Source: Escherichia virus TH57 | Sequence record: MT446422.1 | Strand: one strand, 5' to 3' | DNA length: 64,000 nt | Shown: positions 34,082-59,033 of the stretch, one piece after another | How positions within the stretch are numbered: position 1 is the stretch's first letter | How the letters are laid out: each line of letters begins with the position of its first letter | The notes under the pieces: generated by a model | Databases searched by the model: none | What the model saw: only the letters and a program-made list of their open reading frames with translations | Told to the model about the DNA's origin: nothing | Position numbers and translations under genes: made by a program

Positions 34082-37000
34082 TTACATTTACCTGTGTAGG
34101 ATTAACCGGGTCTCTTGGATTACCAATATCATCTTTAAGACGTTGGTCAACTAATGCTCTCCAATTTGAGAATGTAACAGCCGACTGGTCAAACAGTGGA
34201 CTATATTTTCCACGACGTTGTGACGGTAACAACCCATAGAACATGGAGAAATCATTCTCGGCATCATAATCGGCTGGTAATGGGAATGGTTGACCAGCAT
34301 TAGGAGCGATGTTATATATTGCTTCACCTGTGATAGGGTTTTTCTCAATAGTACCATCAACACCAATCACTGCAACTCGGTCATTCCATTCTGACGGAAT
34401 ACCAGAAGACCATCTATAGTTACTTAATTTATTAATGATTGTCTCGGTGTGTTTAAGAGTCAAACCAACGTTAACAAACATTGTCAGCAACGTAATACCG
34501 ATGAATCCAAATCCAACCGGGTGAACGAATCGCAAAACATCATTACGATAACGAGAGGTTGGAAGGTTTGACTTAATTGTCATTACGTAATAAGAGCGGT
34601 TACGATTAATATAATCGATGTTGTTGCTCAACAACTCTTTACCACGAACACCTTGCACAATCATCCCCTTGAATGAGGTTCTTTCTGATTTAATTTCTTG
34701 CCCAACAATAAAACGTCCCAGGAGGTTATGAATAGTAATACGCCATCTTAATTTACCGTCTTTATAATCGCGCTCCATATAAGTCACATTACTGCGACCA
34801 GTTGCAGTATAAATGGTTTGGCCTACAATGTCTTCACTGATATTATCAGATTCAACTACGATATCATACTCGGTTCCGTTCTTGGATTCGATGTCAATTT
34901 CAACATCTTCATTATACAGCAATTTGAACAGGAATTTATAAGACGCTTCTGTGCCTTTTGTTGCCCAAAAATCAGACTGTCGGGCCTGGAAGAATCGAAC
35001 AGCTTCGTCACGTTTTTCCTTGGAGAGGTAAATGTTGCGTTTGTACATTTCACTCCAGAGGTATTCCCATGCATCTTCCTCGCGTGGATATTGGTTACGA
35101 ATAAGATTCAACAGGTTGTTATAGTATGTACCAGAACCATCACTGATGAACTGCAAATAATATTCACAGAATTTTTCAAATTTACTATCCTGCAAAAGAT
35201 AGCTATCCGGAACCATCTTCGTTAATAATGGCTGCAGGTCAGGGTCTTTTTCCTTATTCTCATTTTCTGGAGTCCATGGAATATCATGTTCCTGGTTTTG
35301 CAGTTCGGCCATAAGCATAATTTCTTTTGGCTTCCAGATGATACGCACTTCATCGCGCACGCGATAGTCAAACTCAAAATAGCCAATTAATTCCCCAGTA
35401 TTTTTATGAAGCATAATCCCGGAGGCATATTTTTTAAAGCCATTGAATTCGATGTTAGGTGCAGTAATCGTTACTTGACCTTTGTTCCAATATTCATGCA
35501 CGATACGTTCCGGGGAAGTTCCACTAAATGTATCGATGATATACTGGTAAAGAACATCGTTATAGACGACCATTGCTCGGTCTGAAGTCGTAATCCAGCA
35601 ACGAGTATCGTCACGTCTTGACCAGTTAAAGAACGGCTCTGCATAGTAAGTCATACGCCCAGGTTTGAACTCTTCAAAGCCAGAATCTTCGCCAGCTCTG
35701 AAACTCATCATCAGGTAATGCTTATCATGTATCCATTGTTCATCGTAAACGTATTTGACTGCTTCGTTAACTTCATCAGGATATTTAAGAGGAAGTTCAG
35801 TATCAGGCTCAACCGAATATTTGAAGTTGCTGGAGCTAAAGAATACTTCGATGCCATCAGTTGACATGCTTGCATAACCATGTTCGATTCGGCGGCGTTC
35901 TTCTTCTGTATTACCAAAAACTCTCGTCCATGTATCAGTAACAGGGTCTAATTTATAAACACCTTTATCCAGAGAGTCAACAACGTTTTCAGGTTTAGTT
36001 GGGTCTTGTCTTTCTTCTTTAACTTCACCTGTAATTAATGCAAACGTATGGCCTTGAACTGAATCCATTTTATAGCAAACTGCTTTAGGGTTCGCCGTAA
36101 TTGTACTGTAACCAGTTTCAAATAGTTTTTCACCAAAAGTCGGAGACCCTGGGGTTGTATCAATCGGCGCATCAGAGGTTTTTGCTTTATATACACGACC
36201 ACGAGCCGCAACATAAATGAACTCATCCGAAACCGTAATAGCTTCTGCTATTTGCGAAATATATGCCGGAAGTCTTGCATAGTTACCGAAGATTTCAATA
36301 TCAAATCCAAGGTTAATATCCGAACCGACTTTAGCAAATGTAATATCTTCAGAACTGAATCGAACATCATCTGCAGACCATCTTATATCGCTTGATTGGC
36401 GACCATAGAATATACGGTCATACCCCAAAACGTAAGTTGTGGTATCAGTCTGGTAATATACAGTTCTTGATACAGGGTTACCGACCCGCTCGTTAAAGAG
36501 TCTTATGTAATACCAGTTCTGGCCTTTGTCATTGGAGACTTTAACCATCGGCTGGAATCGTTCGAACAAATAAAGAACTCCACCGAGTTCAGCAAGCATC
36601 GTGCGGTTTTGGTCAACACAAACTGCTTGAATCGGTCCCTGGATTTCGTGATATTGGTCTTCTTGTAAAACATAGTTCGAGATTGAAGACAAATGAGAAT
36701 ATGCAGAGGTCCATGTAAAGTCTTCGGTCATCAATGAGGCCATAATAGCATCATTGTTAAAGTTGATATATCTCTGATTGTTATTGGTGAATTTTTCTTC
36801 AATGAATTTATTAGCCAAACTAAATTCGCGCATATGTTCAAAAGTATACGCGTTTGTTGCAAAGGTTTCAAATTCTTCGGTGTATTCCCAATCAGACCGT
36901 TCGAAGCCCATTGCCGCAACAGACACGCGCATCTGATAACTTGTTAACGGACGAATATATTCCTGCTCGAACCATTCATTGTCTGCGGTATAACCAAGGT

Positions 37001-48485: not shown

Positions 48486-48560
48486 GGCCCTTTAGCTCAA
48501 TGGGAGAGCTGTCAGCTCATAACTGATAGGTAGCTGGATCGAAACCAGCAAGGGCCACCA
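48486..48560 (+). tRNA. tRNA with anticodon CAT (Met, or Ile if lysidine-modified)
   Basis: hand-folded cloverleaf: acceptor GGCCCTT/AAGGGCC, D stem GCTC/GAGC, anticodon stem GTCAG/CTGAT with loop CTCATAA, T stem GCTGG/CCAGC, encoded CCA. Confidence 0.8.
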
Positions 48561-48564
48561 AACG

Positions 48565-48641
48565 CGGGGTGTAGCTCAATTGTATAGAGCAACGGTCTTC
48601 TAAACCGTAGGTTGTGGGTTAGAATCCCACCACCCCGACCA
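48565..48641 (+). tRNA. tRNA-Arg (anticodon TCT)
   Basis: hand-folded cloverleaf: acceptor CGGGGTG/CACCCCG, anticodon stem ACGGT/ACCGT with loop CTTCTAA, T arm GTGGG-TTAGAAT-CCCAC, encoded CCA; T4 also carries tRNA-Arg(UCU) here. Confidence 0.8.
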
Positions 48642-52317: not shown

Positions 52318-52651
52318 ACCAGAAAAATTTGTATACGCAGACAAGATTGATAAAGACCTTATGCCTCCATTTGGAGCTTTGTCCATGTGCATCGTTGGGG
52401 TTATAATGATGGTGCTTTGTGGGGATATGGATATCATTAGTGTCGGAGTCGCCTGGGCACTAATAATCGCAGCTCCTTTTATTACCGTCCTGAGCATGAT
52501 ATTGATAAATGTGTGGCATCAAAATCATATGAATAAAGGATATCGTGGTCGAGTTAAAGAGTGGGAACAAAAATGTGTTTCCCTACAAGAAGAGCACAAA
52601 ATTAAATGTGCCGAAGAATTTATTAAGGAGGTTCGTAATGGAACGGCCTAG
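52292..52651 (+). CDS. hypothetical membrane protein
   Basis: 119 aa from ATG at 52292; two predicted TM helices; C-terminus ...EEFIKEVRNG. Confidence 0.5.
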   Translation: MRTLYLPSKPEKFVYADKIDKDLMPPFGALSMCIVGVIMMVLCGDMDIISVGVAWALIIAAPFITVLSMILINVWHQNHMNKGYRGRVKEWEQKCVSLQEEHKIKCAEEFIKEVRNGTA

Positions 52652-52991
52652 TCTTGCCTCACATGTTTATCAATTGGCTGAATATGATATTGGTGGCAAT
52701 TTATTATTAGGGATTGTCACCGCCATGCTTGGTGGTTTGGTTGGTCTGGTAATGACCACGGTTATGGCTGCAATCGAGGGAGTCATGCCTATTGAGATGG
52801 GGTTCTTTATGATAATCGCTCCGGCTGTTGTGGCTTATTTTATCCCTGTTGTGTATGATATCTGTCACACAAACGCCGTGAATGCTCCTAGTCGGAAGAG
52901 ATATGCTTCAGCAATGGCTGAGTATAATAAGTTCCTAGACAAAACAAAACGTAATGACCTTGAAACCTTTATTAAGGAATGTAAATCATGA
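52638..52991 (+). CDS. hypothetical membrane protein (paralog of preceding gene)
   Basis: 117 aa from ATG at 52638 (RBS AAGGAGG); TM helices; C-terminus ...ETFIKECKS. Confidence 0.5.
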   Translation: MERPSLASHVYQLAEYDIGGNLLLGIVTAMLGGLVGLVMTTVMAAIEGVMPIEMGFFMIIAPAVVAYFIPVVYDICHTNAVNAPSRKRYASAMAEYNKFLDKTKRNDLETFIKECKS

Positions 52992-53278
52992 ATAAAATTG
53001 AAATTGCTATCCCCAAGTATTATGATGAGAAATCTGCAGAAAAAGCTATCTATTCTCTTCTAAATAAGACCTCTGAAATTGAAAAACACTGTGAAGAAAT
53101 CGCAGATGAATATGGCATCGAATTCAGCACTGGCGATTACGGCACCGGCCGTACATATCACCCAGTCGGTTATGAATGTTCCGAATGGTTCGCTCACCAT
53201 ATTGAAAACAACGGCGGACAAGTTGAAAACGGCATTGTTACTGTTGGTGCCTGGGTTTCCTCTTCTGAGGTGTGCTAA
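52988..53278 (+). CDS. small protein, member 1 of tandem W-x-S-S-x-x-C tail family
   Basis: 96 aa ending GAWVSSSEVC; internal EEIADEYG motif. Confidence 0.6.
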   Translation: MNKIEIAIPKYYDEKSAEKAIYSLLNKTSEIEKHCEEIADEYGIEFSTGDYGTGRTYHPVGYECSEWFAHHIENNGGQVENGIVTVGAWVSSSEVC

Positions 53279-53279
53279 T

Positions 53280-53561
53280 ATGATGAATGATTACCGTAAA
53301 AATAAAGAACTGGCTAACGCAGTAAATGATATCCATAAAGCTATTCGTCGTGCCGAGGAAATTGCAGACAAATATGAGACTCATTTTAATATATACCCTG
53401 CTCGCGGTATGGGCGGTGACTATTATTCTCCTGGCGCCTTGAAAGCCGACCTTGCTCATTGGGAAGAACATGGTCATCCTGAATGGGCTATTGTTAATAC
53501 TCATGACTATACAACTGACCTGGAAAATGGTGGTTGGGTGTCCTCTTCTGTTGAATGTTAA
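53280..53561 (+). CDS. small protein, member 2 of tandem W-x-S-S-x-x-C tail family
   Basis: 93 aa ending GGWVSSSVEC; EEIADKYE motif. Confidence 0.6.
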   Translation: MMNDYRKNKELANAVNDIHKAIRRAEEIADKYETHFNIYPARGMGGDYYSPGALKADLAHWEEHGHPEWAIVNTHDYTTDLENGGWVSSSVEC

Positions 53562-53570
53562 GGAATTATT

Positions 53571-53768
53571 ATGTCTCGTGAATTAGATTGTGCAATCCGT
53601 ACTGCCGCGGCAGCTATTGAAAACGTTATCCAGATTTGTAAAGAAGAACGTGAAGAAGCCGACATCTATATCGAAGGTGAAAACCATCTGGACCGTCATA
53701 TCACGATTTACAATGGCTGTATTACAATTACGGGTGGCTCCTGGGTGTCCTCCTCTTACGAATGCTAA
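53571..53768 (+). CDS. small protein, member 3 of tandem W-x-S-S-x-x-C tail family
   Basis: 65 aa ending GSWVSSSYEC. Confidence 0.6.
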   Translation: MSRELDCAIRTAAAAIENVIQICKEEREEADIYIEGENHLDRHITIYNGCITITGGSWVSSSYEC

Positions 53769-53777
53769 GGAAATAAA

Positions 53778-54005
53778 ATGACTGCTAAAACTGTTAAAGA
53801 AATTGAAGACCAAATCCGTGCACTAATCTGTGAAGGTGAACAACTGGCCGATAAAACTGGTGAATACTTTCATGTGTATGCTGACAGTCTTCAACGATAT
53901 ATTCCTGCGGGTTGTCCAGAATACGAAGAGTATGACTGGATTCGCGGTGATTATGGTATCCCAGATGGTAAAGGTTTCTGGTTTAACTCCTCTATGTCTT
54001 GCTAA
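53778..54005 (+). CDS. small protein, member 4 of tandem W-x-S-S-x-x-C tail family
   Basis: 75 aa ending GFWFNSSMSC. Confidence 0.55.
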   Translation: MTAKTVKEIEDQIRALICEGEQLADKTGEYFHVYADSLQRYIPAGCPEYEEYDWIRGDYGIPDGKGFWFNSSMSC

Positions 54006-54014
54006 GGTGATAAA

Positions 54015-54248
54015 ATGACTACTGCTGTTGAATATGCTGAATTAGAAAAAGCTGCCCTTGAATTGGCTGCGCTGTATAAGAAAGTAAAAGATATGGCGTC
54101 TGCTCAAGATTTCGGTGTTGAGCTTGATGATTATGACGGCGAAGTCCGTCTTGAAGACTGGTTGAACAGCTCTTGTTATGGTGAAGAAGCGGGCCGTACC
54201 TTCGTTGCTCGTGCCGATGGTAAAATCTGGTACCCGAGCAGCTGCTAA
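54015..54248 (+). CDS. small protein, member 5 (divergent) of tandem W-x-S-S-x-x-C tail family
   Basis: 77 aa ending KIWYPSSC, with an internal WLNSSCYGEE. Confidence 0.5.
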   Translation: MTTAVEYAELEKAALELAALYKKVKDMASAQDFGVELDDYDGEVRLEDWLNSSCYGEEAGRTFVARADGKIWYPSSC

Positions 54249-54278
54249 AATTATCACAAGGATGTGATAGGAGGACTT

Positions 54279-54608
54279 ATGCACAGAGATTCAGTATTTA
54301 AATATCTTTTAAAAACAGATAAAGAATTTTATATGGATGGACAAGCATTCTTGTTCGTTCGCGGTAAGCGTGAAATGTTTTATAAATGCGACCTCTCCAT
54401 GCATCATCACATGTACCATACCCATGGCGAGTCCATACTAGGGTTCTCTGGTGATGAGACTAAACATATAGCTATGTATTATGACCATTTCAAGCTCAAT
54501 GATTGTGGTGATAATGCTTTGGTCTGGAATCCATCTTGGTGCCGGTGGGATACAATAGACAACAATAAATTATTTTTAGAATATTGCAGAAGTAGTATAC
54601 AACTCTAG
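54279..54608 (+). CDS. hypothetical His/Cys-rich protein
   Basis: 109 aa from ATG at 54279 (RBS AGGAGG); HHHMYHTHGE motif suggests metal binding. Confidence 0.5.
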   Translation: MHRDSVFKYLLKTDKEFYMDGQAFLFVRGKREMFYKCDLSMHHHMYHTHGESILGFSGDETKHIAMYYDHFKLNDCGDNALVWNPSWCRWDTIDNNKLFLEYCRSSIQL

Positions 54609-54672
54609 AAAATCGTGTTACTATTCTCTTATCAACTGATGACAATCACGTTATCAGAACAGGAGAATAAAA

Positions 54673-54873
54673 ATGTCTATCGCAAACGAATTAATCAAAG
54701 TTCTGAACGAAGCCAAAGCCAACCAACTGGAGGTTAATCTCCAGGAAGTTTCAGATGGCATTAAAGTAACCATCAGCGGCGATGGCGTTCCAGGCACTAC
54801 AGAGGTTTACGATTCTTTGGAAGAAGTGGTTTCTTGCATTAAAAGAGCCGTTTACTTATATGGTATAATTTGA
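54673..54873 (+). CDS. hypothetical small protein
   Basis: 66 aa, RBS AGGAGA. Confidence 0.5.
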   Translation: MSIANELIKVLNEAKANQLEVNLQEVSDGIKVTISGDGVPGTTEVYDSLEEVVSCIKRAVYLYGII

Positions 54874-54883
54874 GGAAAATATT

Positions 54884-55051
54884 ATGTATAATGTTCTTAT
54901 TGTTTTTGTCACTCACCCGCAAGGTGGAGTAAGACAGAATACTTCTCAAGTGGTTCAATTTTCTTCACTAGAGGCCGCCAATCTTGCTGCCTCACGAATT
55001 GAAGCGAAAAAATCGGCACTTGGAAAATATGAAGTAACTCGTCTTTACTAA
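54884..55051 (+). CDS. hypothetical small protein (55 aa)
   Basis: ATG preceded by conserved TGAGGAAAATATT initiation region; below ORF-track cutoff. Confidence 0.4.
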   Translation: MYNVLIVFVTHPQGGVRQNTSQVVQFSSLEAANLAASRIEAKKSALGKYEVTRLY

Positions 55052-55064
55052 TGAGGAAAATATT

Positions 55065-56024
55065 ATGATGTTAGTTATTGGCTCTCGCGCATTGCATAAC
55101 GCCGGTCTGATTGAAAGTAAGAAAATTGAAAACTCTGATTGGGACTTTATAGCAGACCAAGGTTCCTGGAACAACTTTAAAACCCAGATGATGGGGCAGC
55201 ACGTGCATGTGGATAACCCAGATGTTCAAGCTTTTAAATGTATGCACAATGGCAAAGAAACCTATTTTGAAGCATACATCGTCCGGGCACTGACAAGTGT
55301 TCGTGAACTGACTGATGAGTTACAAGAGGAAGATTTTACCTCTAGTTATCGTCTGCTCAAATATGCGAAGGCGAATATTCAGAAAGACCGTCTATCTGGT
55401 TTTTACTGGGCGACTCCTGATATTTGTCTGGCAATTAAACTGTCTCATCGTTACCTGAAGAACAATCCATTCTTCCTGAAGACCATGAGTCATATTAATT
55501 ACCTTCGCAATAAGGGTGTTGTTCTTAATGATGAACTGCAGAAAATTATGCAACAACGCCAGGCAGAAACACTGTCATATAGTCACCCTAAACTAGATGT
55601 GGGCAAGAAAACTTTCTTTAATGATACAATCTATACCCTTGACCATGACTCCATCCACGAGGCTGTGGCGCTTGCTGATAAGCCTGCATATAAGTTCTAT
55701 ATGAAGGATGATTCAGAAGTCATGACCTCGCGTGAAAAATTTGAAGCACTCCCTGAGATTATTAAACTGGCTGGGGTTTATGAAGAAGCATGTGTACTTG
55801 CTCTGGAGCGTTCGCAGGTTCCCAATGAGTTCAATATCTCTCCATCCGTGAGCTTCCATATTGCTCTGGAAAAAGTCTGCACCTCCATTACTTCTGGATG
55901 GTTCCGCGAGTATGCCTGGGAACATTACCAGGAAGTGGTTAATATGTACAACACCCTGGGTCACGAAGACTATGTTAAACGTTTCAAAGCTAACCAGCAT
56001 TTAATTCGCCCTTTCGAAAAATAA
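55065..56024 (+). CDS. putative nucleotidyltransferase-fold protein
   Basis: 319 aa; N-terminal IGSRALHNAGLIESKKIENSDWDF fits the Pol-beta-type NTase signature G[GS]x(9-15)DxD; remainder unassigned. Confidence 0.45.
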   Translation: MMLVIGSRALHNAGLIESKKIENSDWDFIADQGSWNNFKTQMMGQHVHVDNPDVQAFKCMHNGKETYFEAYIVRALTSVRELTDELQEEDFTSSYRLLKYAKANIQKDRLSGFYWATPDICLAIKLSHRYLKNNPFFLKTMSHINYLRNKGVVLNDELQKIMQQRQAETLSYSHPKLDVGKKTFFNDTIYTLDHDSIHEAVALADKPAYKFYMKDDSEVMTSREKFEALPEIIKLAGVYEEACVLALERSQVPNEFNISPSVSFHIALEKVCTSITSGWFREYAWEHYQEVVNMYNTLGHEDYVKRFKANQHLIRPFEK

Positions 56025-56026
56025 TT

Positions 56027-56060
56027 GTGTACATCCAAGTGGGACTATGACACAATAGTC
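56027..56060 (+). promoter_or_regulatory. early promoter-like cassette with 10-bp inverted repeat
   Basis: gtgtac followed by GTGGGACTAT-gacaca-ATAGTCCCAC; -10 assignment uncertain. Confidence 0.35.
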
Positions 56061-56083
56061 CCACAATCAATGAGGAAAATATT

Positions 56084-56770
56084 ATGAACGGTCCAAAAAC
56101 TTTTAATTCTCAAGCTCATGCAGTAGGCAGTTTCGCTGGTAAAATTTCTAATGATAAAATCAAAAACGAAACTATGTTCTTCAACAGCTCATTGGCTTTC
56201 GCTTTTGACAATGGCGGTCCTATTACTCGTAGCTTTATCATGAGTCTGCCGGATGATTGGAACACTGACCAGGTTGTATTTGATTCTCGGGTTCATATGC
56301 TGATGCCTGGTTGGTATCCCGCTATCCCAGGTTATCACCATGATGATGTACCACGCCCGGATATTCCGGTTGGTCAACACTTTATTACTGCAGGGCAACC
56401 TGATTATGATAATCCTCGTTACCATTCTGAACATATTCTTGGTCTTGTTAACGCTGATGTGTGTCCTACTTATTTTGCAACCGGAACTGCAGAATTCAGT
56501 CAGATTCCTGAAGGCGAACTTATCTATCGCCAGTGGCATAAAGAAGTTCTGGAAAAAATTGAGTCCAATGAATTAACCAAGTGGGATGCTCCTGACCGCA
56601 CGTTGCTCCAGTTTGATTGGCAGACATGGCATACAGGTTCTCGTGCAGTAAGTAACGGTTGGCGCTGGTTTGGTCGTGTGTCTCGTAATACCGACCGTGT
56701 TAAAAAGATTACAAATGAAATCCGCGTTAATGCTCAAGTATATCTGGAATTCCCTATGGAGGGCTGGTAA
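56084..56770 (+). CDS. hypothetical protein, His-rich (possible metal-dependent enzyme)
   Basis: 228 aa; YHHDD and RYHSEH motifs; no confident family assignment. Confidence 0.5.
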   Translation: MNGPKTFNSQAHAVGSFAGKISNDKIKNETMFFNSSLAFAFDNGGPITRSFIMSLPDDWNTDQVVFDSRVHMLMPGWYPAIPGYHHDDVPRPDIPVGQHFITAGQPDYDNPRYHSEHILGLVNADVCPTYFATGTAEFSQIPEGELIYRQWHKEVLEKIESNELTKWDAPDRTLLQFDWQTWHTGSRAVSNGWRWFGRVSRNTDRVKKITNEIRVNAQVYLEFPMEGW

Positions 56771-57357
56771 TGGCCCTTTATGAACCTGGCTGTATGGGTG
56801 TTGATGTAAACTTCATCCGACGGGCAGAAAATGCAGGTATAATTGTATCAAGAGACGAATTTATGATTACCAAAAAATATTGGGCAAACCTTGATGATGG
56901 TGATGAAGGAATCAAGGTTGAAAACGTTGATTGGTCGCGATGCAATCGTCATGTGAAAGAGCTTTTAATTAAGGAATATAAAATGGGATATATTGTTAAT
57001 GGGTATCAACCGGAACCACTCAAAGAACAGACACCCGACCCATTAATTTCTTATAGCAAGAAATATGGATTTCGTACCTGGAAAGATGAATTTGATAAGT
57101 TAATTTGTTCCAGGTTTTATGTGTGGGCTGGAATCTTATTTTTACCAATCCTGTTGTTTTTCTTGACAGGTAAAAATGAAGCGCCTGTGGCTGTAATGGG
57201 CGCGTGCATTTCTTCTGCTGCTGTTGGACTTATTGCATCATTTTTATGGACTATGGTTATTGAAGTACCTTTTCGTATTTCTAAAGTTAAAAAGGTATAT
57301 GACGATATCACTAAGAAAAATACATTGAACTCTTTTATTGAGGAATGCCGTAAATGA
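56770..57357 (+). CDS. hypothetical membrane protein
   Basis: 195 aa; two TM helices in C-terminal half; C-terminus ...NSFIEECRK resembles 52292..52991 paralogs. Confidence 0.5.
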   Translation: MALYEPGCMGVDVNFIRRAENAGIIVSRDEFMITKKYWANLDDGDEGIKVENVDWSRCNRHVKELLIKEYKMGYIVNGYQPEPLKEQTPDPLISYSKKYGFRTWKDEFDKLICSRFYVWAGILFLPILLFFLTGKNEAPVAVMGACISSAAVGLIASFLWTMVIEVPFRISKVKKVYDDITKKNTLNSFIEECRK

Positions 57358-57590
57358 GTATTGCAATTTATATTAAATCAGAGTCGTGTGATTCTTATCT
57401 GTATTCCTATGACACTGGAACATCAGAAGAGAAAATCAAAGATGATTTAGAAACCGACTTGGATATGTTCCGACCTATTTCTGAATACAGAATTCAAATT
57501 TCTGATAGTGAATCCCCTTCATTGGAAAATAGACTTGAATTTTTAATGAGTGATATTTTTAACCAATCCTGGGAACGTGACGATGAGTAA
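57354..57590 (+). CDS. hypothetical small acidic protein
   Basis: 78 aa. Confidence 0.45.
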   Translation: MSIAIYIKSESCDSYLYSYDTGTSEEKIKDDLETDLDMFRPISEYRIQISDSESPSLENRLEFLMSDIFNQSWERDDE

Positions 57591-58041
57591 GAAAAACAAG
57601 GTGAAAGAATTATCTGCTGGCATTATTTTCATGACTGAAGATAAAGAGTTATTCATGGGTCGTGTGACCGGTTCTCGTAAACCAGGTATGCCTGCACACA
57701 AATGGGACATCCCTAAGGGTCATGTTGAAGCTGATGAATCCCCGATTGAAGCTGCTATCCGTGAAACTGAAGAAGAAACTGGGTTTACCCAATATGACCC
57801 AGCATTCTTAAAGGACCTGGGTGAATTTCGTTATTCAGATAATAAAAACCTTCACCTGTTTTTGTACACGGTTCCGGTCGAGCATGAGCAGTTCAGACAT
57901 AGTAAATGCTCTGCCTATCATACCTTCCCGGATGGTAGTTCAGTCCCCGAGTTTGATGCATTTGCTCTGATTAAACCGAGCCAATGGCAATACGTAATGG
58001 GTAAATCGATGTACAAGGTAATGACTCAAATTTTCGGATAA
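57583..58041 (+). CDS. nudE: Nudix hydrolase NudE
   Basis: Nudix box GHVEADESPIEAAIRETEEETGF; about 152 aa; adjacent to lysozyme as T4 e.1. Confidence 0.85.
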   Translation: MSKKNKVKELSAGIIFMTEDKELFMGRVTGSRKPGMPAHKWDIPKGHVEADESPIEAAIRETEEETGFTQYDPAFLKDLGEFRYSDNKNLHLFLYTVPVEHEQFRHSKCSAYHTFPDGSSVPEFDAFALIKPSQWQYVMGKSMYKVMTQIFG

Positions 58042-58068
58042 TAAATACCCCTATATAAGGGGGGTATT

Positions 58069-58560
58069 ATGAATATATTCGAAATGTTACGCATAGATGA
58101 AGGTTGTAAGTTGGATTTGTACCGTGACACCGAAGGCTTTTGGACCATCGGCATCGGTCAATTGATAACTAAGAACCCATCGAAAGACGTTGCTCGCGCT
58201 GAGCTGGACAAATTAATGGGTCGTGTTTGCAACGGTAGGATTACCCAGATTGAAGCTGAAACCTTGTTTAACCGTTCAGTGGAAAAAGCTAAAGCCGGAA
58301 TCTTGAAACATCCTGTCTTAAAACCTGTTTATGATGTACTGGATGAAGTTCGTCGTTGCGCACTCATTAATATGGTATTCCAAATGGGTGTAGCTGGTGT
58401 AGCTGGTTTTCCTAAGGGGCTGCGATTGCTCAAGGCTAAATCATGGGAAGCTGCTGCTAAGGAACTGGCTGACTCAAGATGGTATAAAGTCCAGACTCCG
58501 AACCGGGCCAAACGAGTTATTGAAACTTTCCGTACTGGAACTTTTGACGCATACAAATGA
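58069..58560 (+). CDS. e: endolysin (T4 lysozyme, gene e)
   Basis: 163 aa; [12 protein letters not shown]...DTEG..TIGIG...[13 protein letters not shown]...NRAKRVI.TFRTGT.DAYK matches T4 lysozyme with Glu11, Asp20, Thr26. Confidence 0.95.
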
Positions 58561-58616
58561 GTTTACATCTCCAAATGATAGGGTTATAATGACCCTATCA
58601 ACTACGGAGAACAAAC

Positions 58617-59033
58617 ATGACTCGCATTAATTTAACCCTGGTATCTGAACTCGCTGACCAACATCTTATGGCTGAATATCGTGAACTTCCTCGCGTGTTT
58701 GGTGCTGTTCGTAAGCATGTGCAAAATGGTAAAAAGGTGTCTGACTTTAAAATCCCATCATCTTTTCTTTTAGGGACTGGCCATGTCACCTTCTTTTATG
58801 ATAAGCTTTTGTTCCTTAAAAACAGGCATCAAGAACTTATTGCGGAATGTTTAAAGCGAGGGTTTAACATAAAAGATATTTCTACCCAAGATTTAAATGA
58901 TATTCCTGATGAATGGAAGAATGATTATCAACCATCAATCTGGTCAATTGAAATCAGTCAAGCCAGACTGAATGAGAAAATTTCTCAAAAGCCTACCTGG
59001 TACAAATACTATGGGAAAGCTGTGTACGCTTAA
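58617..59033 (+). CDS. denV: endonuclease V (pyrimidine dimer DNA glycosylase/AP lyase, DenV)
   Basis: 138 aa; [35 protein letters not shown] matches remembered T4 DenV. Confidence 0.95.

Follow-up and report, generated by a model that had tools for sequence, protein, structure and literature searches.

A viral nucleotidyltransferase encoded beside small acidic proteins with a conserved Trp-Ser-Ser-Cys tail in Escherichia virus TH57

This work concerns three adjacent genes, here called P1, P2 and P3, at positions 55,065 to 57,357 of a stretch of 64,000 nucleotides of DNA from Escherichia virus TH57 (sequence record MT446422.1); the whole stretch is referred to as the window. A preliminary description made from the DNA letters had read P1 as a nucleotidyltransferase (NTase) and the two genes after it as its possible accessory partners. 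The conserved companion of P1 was found to be neither P2 nor P3 but an array of small acidic proteins encoded upstream, whose C-termini carry a tail of the Trp-Ser-Ser-Cys type (W-SS-C proteins).

The locus and the P1 protein

The source of the window is assigned to a Gaprivervirus-type T4-like phage, bases 54600-58100 being 91-94% identical to Gaprivervirus phages of Escherichia and Shigella (TH41, P479, SP18, EAWsc9). P1, P2 and P3 occupy a variable region between tRNA genes and nudE/e/denV that is the counterpart of the T4 e.1-e.8 region. The open reading frames (ORFs) of 319, 228 and 195 amino acids (aa) were found on the + strand where they had first been placed, and they are genuine conserved genes and not chance ORFs, because each of them matches a Pfam or PHROG family and P1 and P2 have more than 1000 homologues each (2063 and 1144 relatives, respectively, in a large protein database). 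The genes of main interest are as follows.

52988..53278, + strand: W-SS-C protein 1, 96 aa, ending GAWVSSSEVC; phrog_899; proposed partner of P1
53286..53561, + strand: W-SS-C protein 2, 91-93 aa, ending GGWVSSSVEC
53571..53768, + strand: W-SS-C protein 3, 65 aa, ending GSWVSSSYEC; phrog_4882
53778..54005, + strand: W-SS-C protein 4, 75 aa, ending GFWFNSSMSC
54015..54248, + strand: W-SS-C protein 5, 77 aa, with an internal WLNSSC, ending KIWYPSSC
55065..56024, + strand: P1, putative Pol-beta-type NTase, 319 aa; DUF7277 core at about residues 2-101, helical DUF7275 at residues 120-305
56084..56770, + strand: P2, predicted stand-alone Fe(II)/2-oxoglutarate-dependent oxygenase of double-stranded beta-helix fold, 228 aa
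56770..57357, + strand: P3, predicted e.2-family membrane protein, 195 aa; soluble N-terminal region of about 110 aa followed by two C-terminal transmembrane segments

P1 matches the Pfam families DUF7277 (residues 2-101, E 2.7e-27) and DUF7275 (residues 120-305, E 2.7e-76) as well as phrog_2141 (E 2e-148), and its N-terminus reads MMLVIGSRALHNAGLIESKKIENSDWDF. A Pol-beta-type NTase signature had been noticed in this N-terminus, and both the signature and the fold hold up: the predicted structure (predicted local distance difference test, pLDDT, 92) shows the NTase alpha/beta core fold, and G6, S7, D25, D27 and E69 are invariant in a family alignment of 49 sequences. In the model, the hG[GS] motif is I5-G6-S7 at the junction of strand 1 (residues 2-5) and helix 1 (residues 7-12), the invariant carboxylates of the Dh[DE]h motif are those of D25-W-D27-F at the start of strand 2 (residues 26-31), and E69, in strand 5 (residues 64-73), is a candidate third carboxylate. 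The spacing from S7 to S24 of SDWD is sixteen residues (17 to D25), above the classical x9-13. The motif is kept in compact homologues of 250-266 aa from Streptomyces, Gordonia, Mycobacterium and Vibrio phages, and a second set of residues is universal across the P1 homologues, namely K125, H128, K139, H194-D195-x-x-H198, E240-E241 and E248-R249, of which the invariant K125/H128 and H194-D195 are carried by the helical domain. Alignment and model together point to a Pol-beta-superfamily NTase with a complete catalytic signature, to which the virus-specific helical DUF7275 appears to supply extra invariant Lys, His, Asp and Glu residues.

Comparison of the P1 model with known structures gave as matches the MenT1 toxin (8an4; score 10.1, 145 residues aligned), ANT(2'')-Ia (8.7), TglT/MenT3 (8.5), MenT4 (7.8), TM1012 (7.7), a fungal NTase-like protein (7.6), JHP933 (7.5) and LnuA (7.2), while in a viral structure library (BFVD) P1 matched solely other DUF7275 proteins. 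Proteins with DUF7275 of 508 and 571 aa (A0A3G5AJ90, A0A3G5AE53) were seen in the giant viruses Sylvanvirus and Satyrvirus, and the enzyme family of P1 therefore extends beyond phages. At the level of sequence, no characterised NTase family was matched by P1 in Pfam, NCBIfam or PDB searches, and running Pfam at E up to 10 on every member of the P1 and P2 alignments returned the two DUF families and noise alone. NCBIfam and PADLOC searches of P1, P2 and P3 gave no match, in PADLOC none that would bear on defence, and PDB sequence searches with P1, P2 and the small proteins, used singly and as profiles, found nothing known. The statement in the preliminary description that the remaining 280 aa of P1 could be placed in no recognised T4 family agrees with the content of the T4 e-to-tRNA region, where homologues of P1 and P2 were not found and a weak match to P3 was the only one. 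In the literature searched, DUF7275 and DUF7277 are unmentioned, the RB69 homologues ORF134c and ORF132c are without assigned function, and no published function was found for any of the genes described here.

Linkage of P1 to small acidic proteins

We clustered by BLAST all ORFs lying within 5 kb of P1 in 80 IMG/VR loci, which were collected around P1 homologues of 39-97% identity and which also served for the other co-occurrence counts given below. The W-SS-C family, which corresponds to phrog_899/4882, stood out in this clustering and was present at 61 of the 80 loci. Members of the family are 60-120 aa long, contain an N-terminal helix of the form A-E-x-I-A-D-E-h-G-h-x-F and often a YGMGGxYY loop, and end in G-x-W-x-S-S-x-x-Cys followed directly by the stop codon. 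They are acidic, at a median net charge of -11 per 100 residues, and the exact Cys end is found in 182 of 187 distinct members. Forty representatives share 22% identity on average, yet the Trp, one Ser and the Cys of the tail are invariant among them. The number of copies per locus ranges from 1 to 6, with five in the window (52988-54248).

When the tail itself was used as the rule, 73/80 loci were found to have at least one tail-bearing ORF in the orientation of P1 that ends no more than 3.5 kb upstream of it. The position is narrowly defined: 206 of the 227 tail-bearing ORFs within the 10-kb flanks on each side of P1 are contained in the 2 kb that immediately precede it, and only 4 are on the opposite strand. 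After clustering of P1 at >=60% identity, 16 of the 19 resulting lineages have W-SS-C proteins. The reverse test consisted of scanning IMG/VR with a back-translated tail pattern alone, which returned 23 contigs; P1 is present in 22 of these, 19 of them already in the P1 set and 3 of them new ones in which P1 starts 210-440 bp downstream, and the single contig with neither gene is probably a chance match. The linkage between P1 and the W-SS-C proteins is two-way, it holds across deep divergence, and its order and orientation are fixed. The W-SS-C family itself is diversifying, its hydroxyl-rich, Cys-terminated tail being the sole invariant feature.

A profile search of the large protein database with the W-SS-C family gave 22 proteins, a method that is insensitive for such short sequences, and no Pfam model, PDB relative or annotation was found for the family. 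We also looked for residues conserved solely in those P1 proteins that have W-SS-C neighbours; there were none, and the differences track deep phylogeny. The P1 homologues of actinophages and Vibrio phages adjoin 1-3 tandem paralogues of about 100 aa that belong to a different small family ('GYxDSYxG...EV') and have no W-SS-C proteins; the actinophage arrangement fits a layout of one enzyme with several small proteins.

What is new is, on the negative side, that P1, P2 and P3 are not a unit and, on the positive side, the pairing of P1 with the W-SS-C family. The fold-level identities of P1 and P2 are not new, since some GenBank records already carry the names 'nucleotidyltransferase' and 'phytanoyl-CoA dioxygenase'. 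The record of EAWsc9 (PQ341120.1) has plainly spurious names in this region ('malate synthase', 'transposase' and 'Ig-like domain' on ORFs of 65-95 aa, and 'ovule protein'), and its labels 'nucleotidyltransferase', 'phytanoyl-CoA dioxygenase', 'holin' and 'antitoxin' are unusable as evidence.

P2, P3 and the organization of the neighborhood

P2 matches phrog_1843 (E 5e-93) and no Pfam or NCBIfam model, PhyH, 2OG-FeII_Oxy and TET/JBP included. Its model has a double-stranded beta-helix fold. The clustered His and Asp residues of P2 (YHHDD at residues 84-88, RYHSEH at residues 112-117) had been suggested as a possible metal centre, a suggestion now supported by an HxD...H triad of the kind found in Fe(II)/2-oxoglutarate (2OG) oxygenases, H85, D87 and H183, which is invariant in 38 close homologues and in 4 homologues at 25-33% identity (from Bacillus phage G, Mycobacterium phage SlimJimmy, Cronobacter phage CR3 and an Alteromonas phage). 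In these distant homologues H85, D87, H114, H183, R194 and R198 are all invariant, R194 and R198 being so at all distances. R198-V-S200, in the strand of residues 192-201, has the form RxS and is a candidate binder of the 2OG C5 carboxylate, position 200 being Ser or Thr. The last two core strands of the model carry H183 (strand 182-185) and the Arg residues, which is where an iron ligand and a 2OG binder would be expected. P2 is on these grounds a predicted Fe(II)/2OG oxygenase with the His/Asp cluster as its probable metal centre. PhyH/EctD/EasH-type oxygenases differ from P2 in that the identity is just 8-16%, with no Pfam match, and in that P2 is compact (228 aa), highly conserved and provided with a conserved C-terminal QVY...GW; the label 'phytanoyl-CoA dioxygenase' on P2-type records is a fold-level guess.

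P2 is about 70% identical across T4-like coliphages, Klebsiella phage-plasmids, prophages and metagenomic siphophages, and it moves on its own between very different phages. That unrelated phages, prophages and phage-plasmids all keep P2 to this degree speaks for a target that is itself highly conserved. In Bacillus phage G (2139-6141) the P2 homologue lies between a NUDIX hydrolase gene and genes for an isochorismatase and a nicotinate phosphoribosyltransferase, and in the window (56084-58041) P2 is located two genes upstream of nudE. A P2-Nudix linkage was considered and rejected, as it is limited to the T4-like phages and Bacillus phage G and the other P2 contexts examined have no adjacent gene annotated as NUDIX. 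In two actinophage groups (Mycobacterium phage SlimJimmy and Gordonia phage Smoothie), an RtcB-like RNA ligase is encoded 1-4 genes before a distant P2 homologue.

P3 matches phrog_2203 ('membrane protein', E 4.7e-67), and its hydropathy profile shows two hydrophobic stretches, approximately residues 110-136 and 137-170, in agreement with the two-transmembrane protein first proposed. Its SP18 homologue is annotated e.2, and a tblastn comparison of P3 with the T4 e.2 region gave 30% identity over 165 aa (E 4e-17). P3 is thereby assigned to the e.2 family of membrane proteins; it resembles T4 e.2 in its position relative to nudE and e, in PHROG family and in this 30% identity, and differs in length (195 aa, against an annotated 102 aa for T4 e.2). 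The tail of P3 (..NSFIEECRK) resembles that of a two-transmembrane ORF at 52545-52991 (..ETFIKECKS) with 56% identity over 16 residues by BLASTP (E 3e-4), which suggests a tail motif shared among the small membrane proteins around P3.

The remaining features of the region are listed here.

48486-48641: tRNA-Met and tRNA-Arg genes
54871..54886, + strand: 16-nt initiation region TGAGGAAAATATTATG, copy 1, preceding a 55-aa ORF (54884-55051)
55052..55067, + strand: the same initiation region, copy 2, preceding P1
56039..56064, + strand: perfect 10-bp hairpin in the spacer between P1 and P2, -17.7 kcal/mol, z-score -3.3 against shuffles
56071..56086, + strand: the same initiation region, copy 3, preceding P2
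57354..57590, + strand: 78-aa ORF, phrog_2900, between P3 and nudE
57583-59033: nudE, e and denV

The preliminary description held that P1, P2 and P3 share one unusual translation initiation region. This is correct for P1 and P2, and also for the 55-aa ORF, and incorrect for P3, where the site is absent. The 16-mer TGAGGAAAATATTATG occurs at exactly 3 sites in the 64-kb window, where 0.12 would be expected by chance, and allowing two mismatches adds no further site in the 64 kb. The sequence flanking the three identical ribosome-binding/start regions differs, and the identical regions may reflect either a cassette boundary or selection for equal translation. P3 starts in a TAATG overlap with the stop codon of P2 and would therefore be translationally coupled to it; the 78-aa ORF starts in an ATGA overlap with the stop of P3, nudE overlaps the end of the 78-aa ORF, and these overlapping stops and starts would therefore make P2, P3, the 78-aa ORF and nudE a translationally coupled chain. 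The spacer hairpin has no U-tract 3' of its stem, and SP18 has an additional 75-aa ORF inserted between P1 and P2 at the hairpin junction; the hairpin may mark a hotspot of recombination or insertion, or it may be an RNA-stability element. Of the 80 P1 loci, 24 have a homologue of the 78-aa ORF, which in those of jumbo phages immediately precedes the small W-SS-C ORFs, and the family of this ORF may be a further member of the P1 neighborhood.

Whether P1, P2 and P3 form one functional unit, an NTase with a metal-centre partner and a membrane partner, can be judged from this gene order and from its recurrence. In its favour, the genes stand side by side in one orientation, P2 and P3 belong to the chain of overlapping stops and starts, and about 16 related Tevenvirinae loci have the order P1-P2-P3 as well. 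Against this, P2 is located within 3 kb downstream of P1 at 23/80 loci, which are those of enterobacterial Tevenvirinae and one Aeromonas group, and P3 at about 16/80, all of these being close relatives, while more than 50 more distant P1 loci have neither. P1 and P2 are 37-137 kb apart in Aeromonas phages 31, Aes508 and avDM4, an ORF separates them in SP18, and P2 is found with neither P1 nor P3 next to temperate-phage recombination genes, in phage-plasmids, prophages and siphophages, and in Bacillus phages and actinophages. The trio is confined to close relatives and its adjacency is therefore shared gene order and not a conserved module, so that the co-occurrence in other phages with which the proposed partnership was to be checked has largely refuted it, and a single unit of this kind is now very unlikely. 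P1, P2 and P3 are best explained as functionally independent accessory genes of the e-to-tRNA variable region. A conserved pair of P2 and P3 was likewise tried and rejected: elsewhere P2 is never accompanied by P3, and where Stenotrophomonas and metagenomic phages have an ORF of comparable length beside P2, it shows no relationship to P3.

Possible roles of P1 and the small proteins

A role for P1 has to be built on what has been observed, namely the folds of the proteins, their catalytic motifs and the two-way gene linkage. Pol-beta-superfamily NTases attack hydroxyl acceptors and several of them modify small proteins; GlnD, GlnE and CitX/MdcG put a nucleotide or a nucleotide-derived group on the hydroxyl of a Tyr or Ser residue in a small protein that is often acidic. 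None of these enzymes appeared in our structure or sequence searches with P1, and the likeness is one of mechanism only. By analogy with GlnD and CitX, one enzyme, P1, would serve several paralogous small-protein substrates: it would recognise and bind the W-x-S-S-x-x-Cys-COOH tail, probably through the very conserved DUF7275, use a nucleoside triphosphate and transfer the nucleoside monophosphate to a hydroxyl, the preferred acceptor being the tail serine. In a second version, the small proteins would instead gate a P1 that acts on RNA 3' ends, in the way MenA1 gates MenT1. We prefer the substrate version because a single P1 gene stands beside up to six paralogues whose tail is conserved while their bodies vary. 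That P1 either acts on the W-SS-C tails or is gated by them is a hypothesis we hold tentatively, giving it slightly less than an even chance. Its more specific form, in which P1 (DUF7277 plus DUF7275) and the W-SS-C proteins make up an undescribed module widespread in viruses and P1 nucleotidylylates or otherwise processes the tails to yield host-acting effectors, is doubtful.

Several points weigh against a functional tie between P1 and the small proteins. Five P1 loci of Gram-negative phages, representing two or three lineages, have no W-SS-C proteins, and neither do any of the actinophage homologues examined; within the window, three unrelated small ORFs (54264-55051) separate the array from P1. 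Neighbors in variable phage regions can persist without functional coupling, and the contact between P1 and the tails is drawn purely from gene order. Like that contact, the identity of the acceptor and of the nucleotide and the biological role are what we infer.

The closest known structures suggest that P1 could act by itself as a MenT/AbiEii-like RNA 3'-end nucleotidyltransferase, for example in tRNA CCA extension or repair and in takeover or protection of translation, with the small proteins as unrelated neighbors. MenT1, MenT3 and MenT4-type enzymes add nucleotides to tRNA 3' ends (PMC7450476, PMC10435456), and MenT1 is inhibited by the 68-aa MenA1, which is encoded directly upstream of it (PMC10435456). 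Three of the top four structural matches of P1 are MenT1, MenT3 and MenT4, most invariant P1 residues other than the triad are basic (K125, H128, R129, K139, R165), as would fit an anionic acceptor, and the DUF7275 proteins of giant viruses suggest a universal target. We nevertheless regard this explanation as unlikely, given that the AbiEii/DUF1814 Pfam family is matched neither by P1 nor by the 49 family members at E up to 10 and that the two-way linkage to the W-SS-C proteins would be left unexplained. The tRNA genes close to P1 in the window do not help it either, as this closeness is shared Tevenvirinae gene order, with tRNA genes at 4 of about 56 other loci (flanks of up to 10 kb on each side for IMG/VR loci and of 4 kb for four GenBank loci); a tRNA link through nearby tRNA genes was accordingly set aside as uninformative. 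No sequence similarity of P1 to MenT1/MenA1 (Rv0078A/Rv0078B) or to DUF1814/AbiEii toxins was detected, and a PDB sequence search with the P1 profile gave no match. In those toxins C-terminal motifs III and IV complete the active site, and the invariant K125/H128 and H194-D195 of P1 are candidate counterparts of MenT1 K137 and D152. P1 further differs from MenT1 in its much larger helical domain, DUF7275, with an invariant His/Asp/Glu set of its own, and in its setting, a lytic phage genome as opposed to a chromosomal toxin-antitoxin locus; the W-SS-C proteins differ from MenA1 in being unrelated in sequence, in occurring in 1-6 paralogous copies and in having an invariant C-terminal tail.

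The preliminary description had also raised nucleotide second messengers, and P1 could conceivably jam host immunity of the CBASS/STING type by making either a nucleotide signal or a ligand that competes, for instance a cyclic dinucleotide. Phage minimal-NTase-like enzymes, BCP1 and Av05, make 3'3'-cGAMP and c-di-AMP and block TIR-STING (Ho et al. 2022, bioRxiv 10.1101/2022.06.09.495361). P1 has in common with BCP1 and Av05_0062 (T4 NrdC.11/COG3541 type) that it is a phage-encoded, predicted Pol-beta NTase in an accessory-gene region with a GS...SDxD signature (GS...SDWD), and it differs from them in having GSRALHN-x11-SDWD and another C-terminal domain. Av05_0062 carries both defining motifs of its family, GSIAYGTNLPTSDVD and NPNIIE, and both are absent from P1: the regular expression GS-x-AY[GAN]T-x4-SDxD matches Av05_0062 and nothing in the window, P1 reading GSRALHNAGLIESKKIENSDWD at this place, and no NP-x-h2[DE] about 60 residues after SDxD was seen in P1 by eye (the regular expression for this motif being run on Av05_0062 alone). 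With both motifs absent and a BLASTP E of 0.36 against Av05_0062, P1 therefore stands outside the Av05/BCP1 cyclic-dinucleotide NTase family, the one experimentally characterised anti-defence phage NTase family. No known signalling-pathway gene lies beside P1 at the 80 loci, and we consider a role of this kind improbable. The first 50 kb of Escherichia phage Av-05 (NTase gene at 34222-35283) contain no homologue of P1, P2 or the small proteins. Least probable among the activities proposed for P1 is nucleotidylylation of a small molecule in the manner of the antibiotic-modifying ANT(2'') and LnuA, both of which are among its structural matches: the acceptor pockets of those enzymes are acidic, for cationic drugs, while the conserved residues of P1 are basic, there is no ecological reason for such an activity in coliphages, giant viruses and actinophages alike, and the small-protein linkage is not accounted for.

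Of the 50,697 GenBank phage records searched, 731 carry P1-type and 472 carry P2-type genes, and with the present analysis these two widespread phage families of 'hypothetical proteins' gain defensible fold-level labels. For P1, experiments should take in the upstream small proteins, not P2 and P3. The pairing of P1 with W-SS-C proteins spans T4-like, jumbo and approximately 100-kb phages, and enzymes related to P1 occur in actinophages and giant viruses; if the link between P1 and the W-SS-C proteins is real, it would constitute a new biochemical system in which a viral NTase containing a unique domain is joined by one to six small acidic proteins whose Trp-Ser-Ser-Cys C-terminus is invariant.

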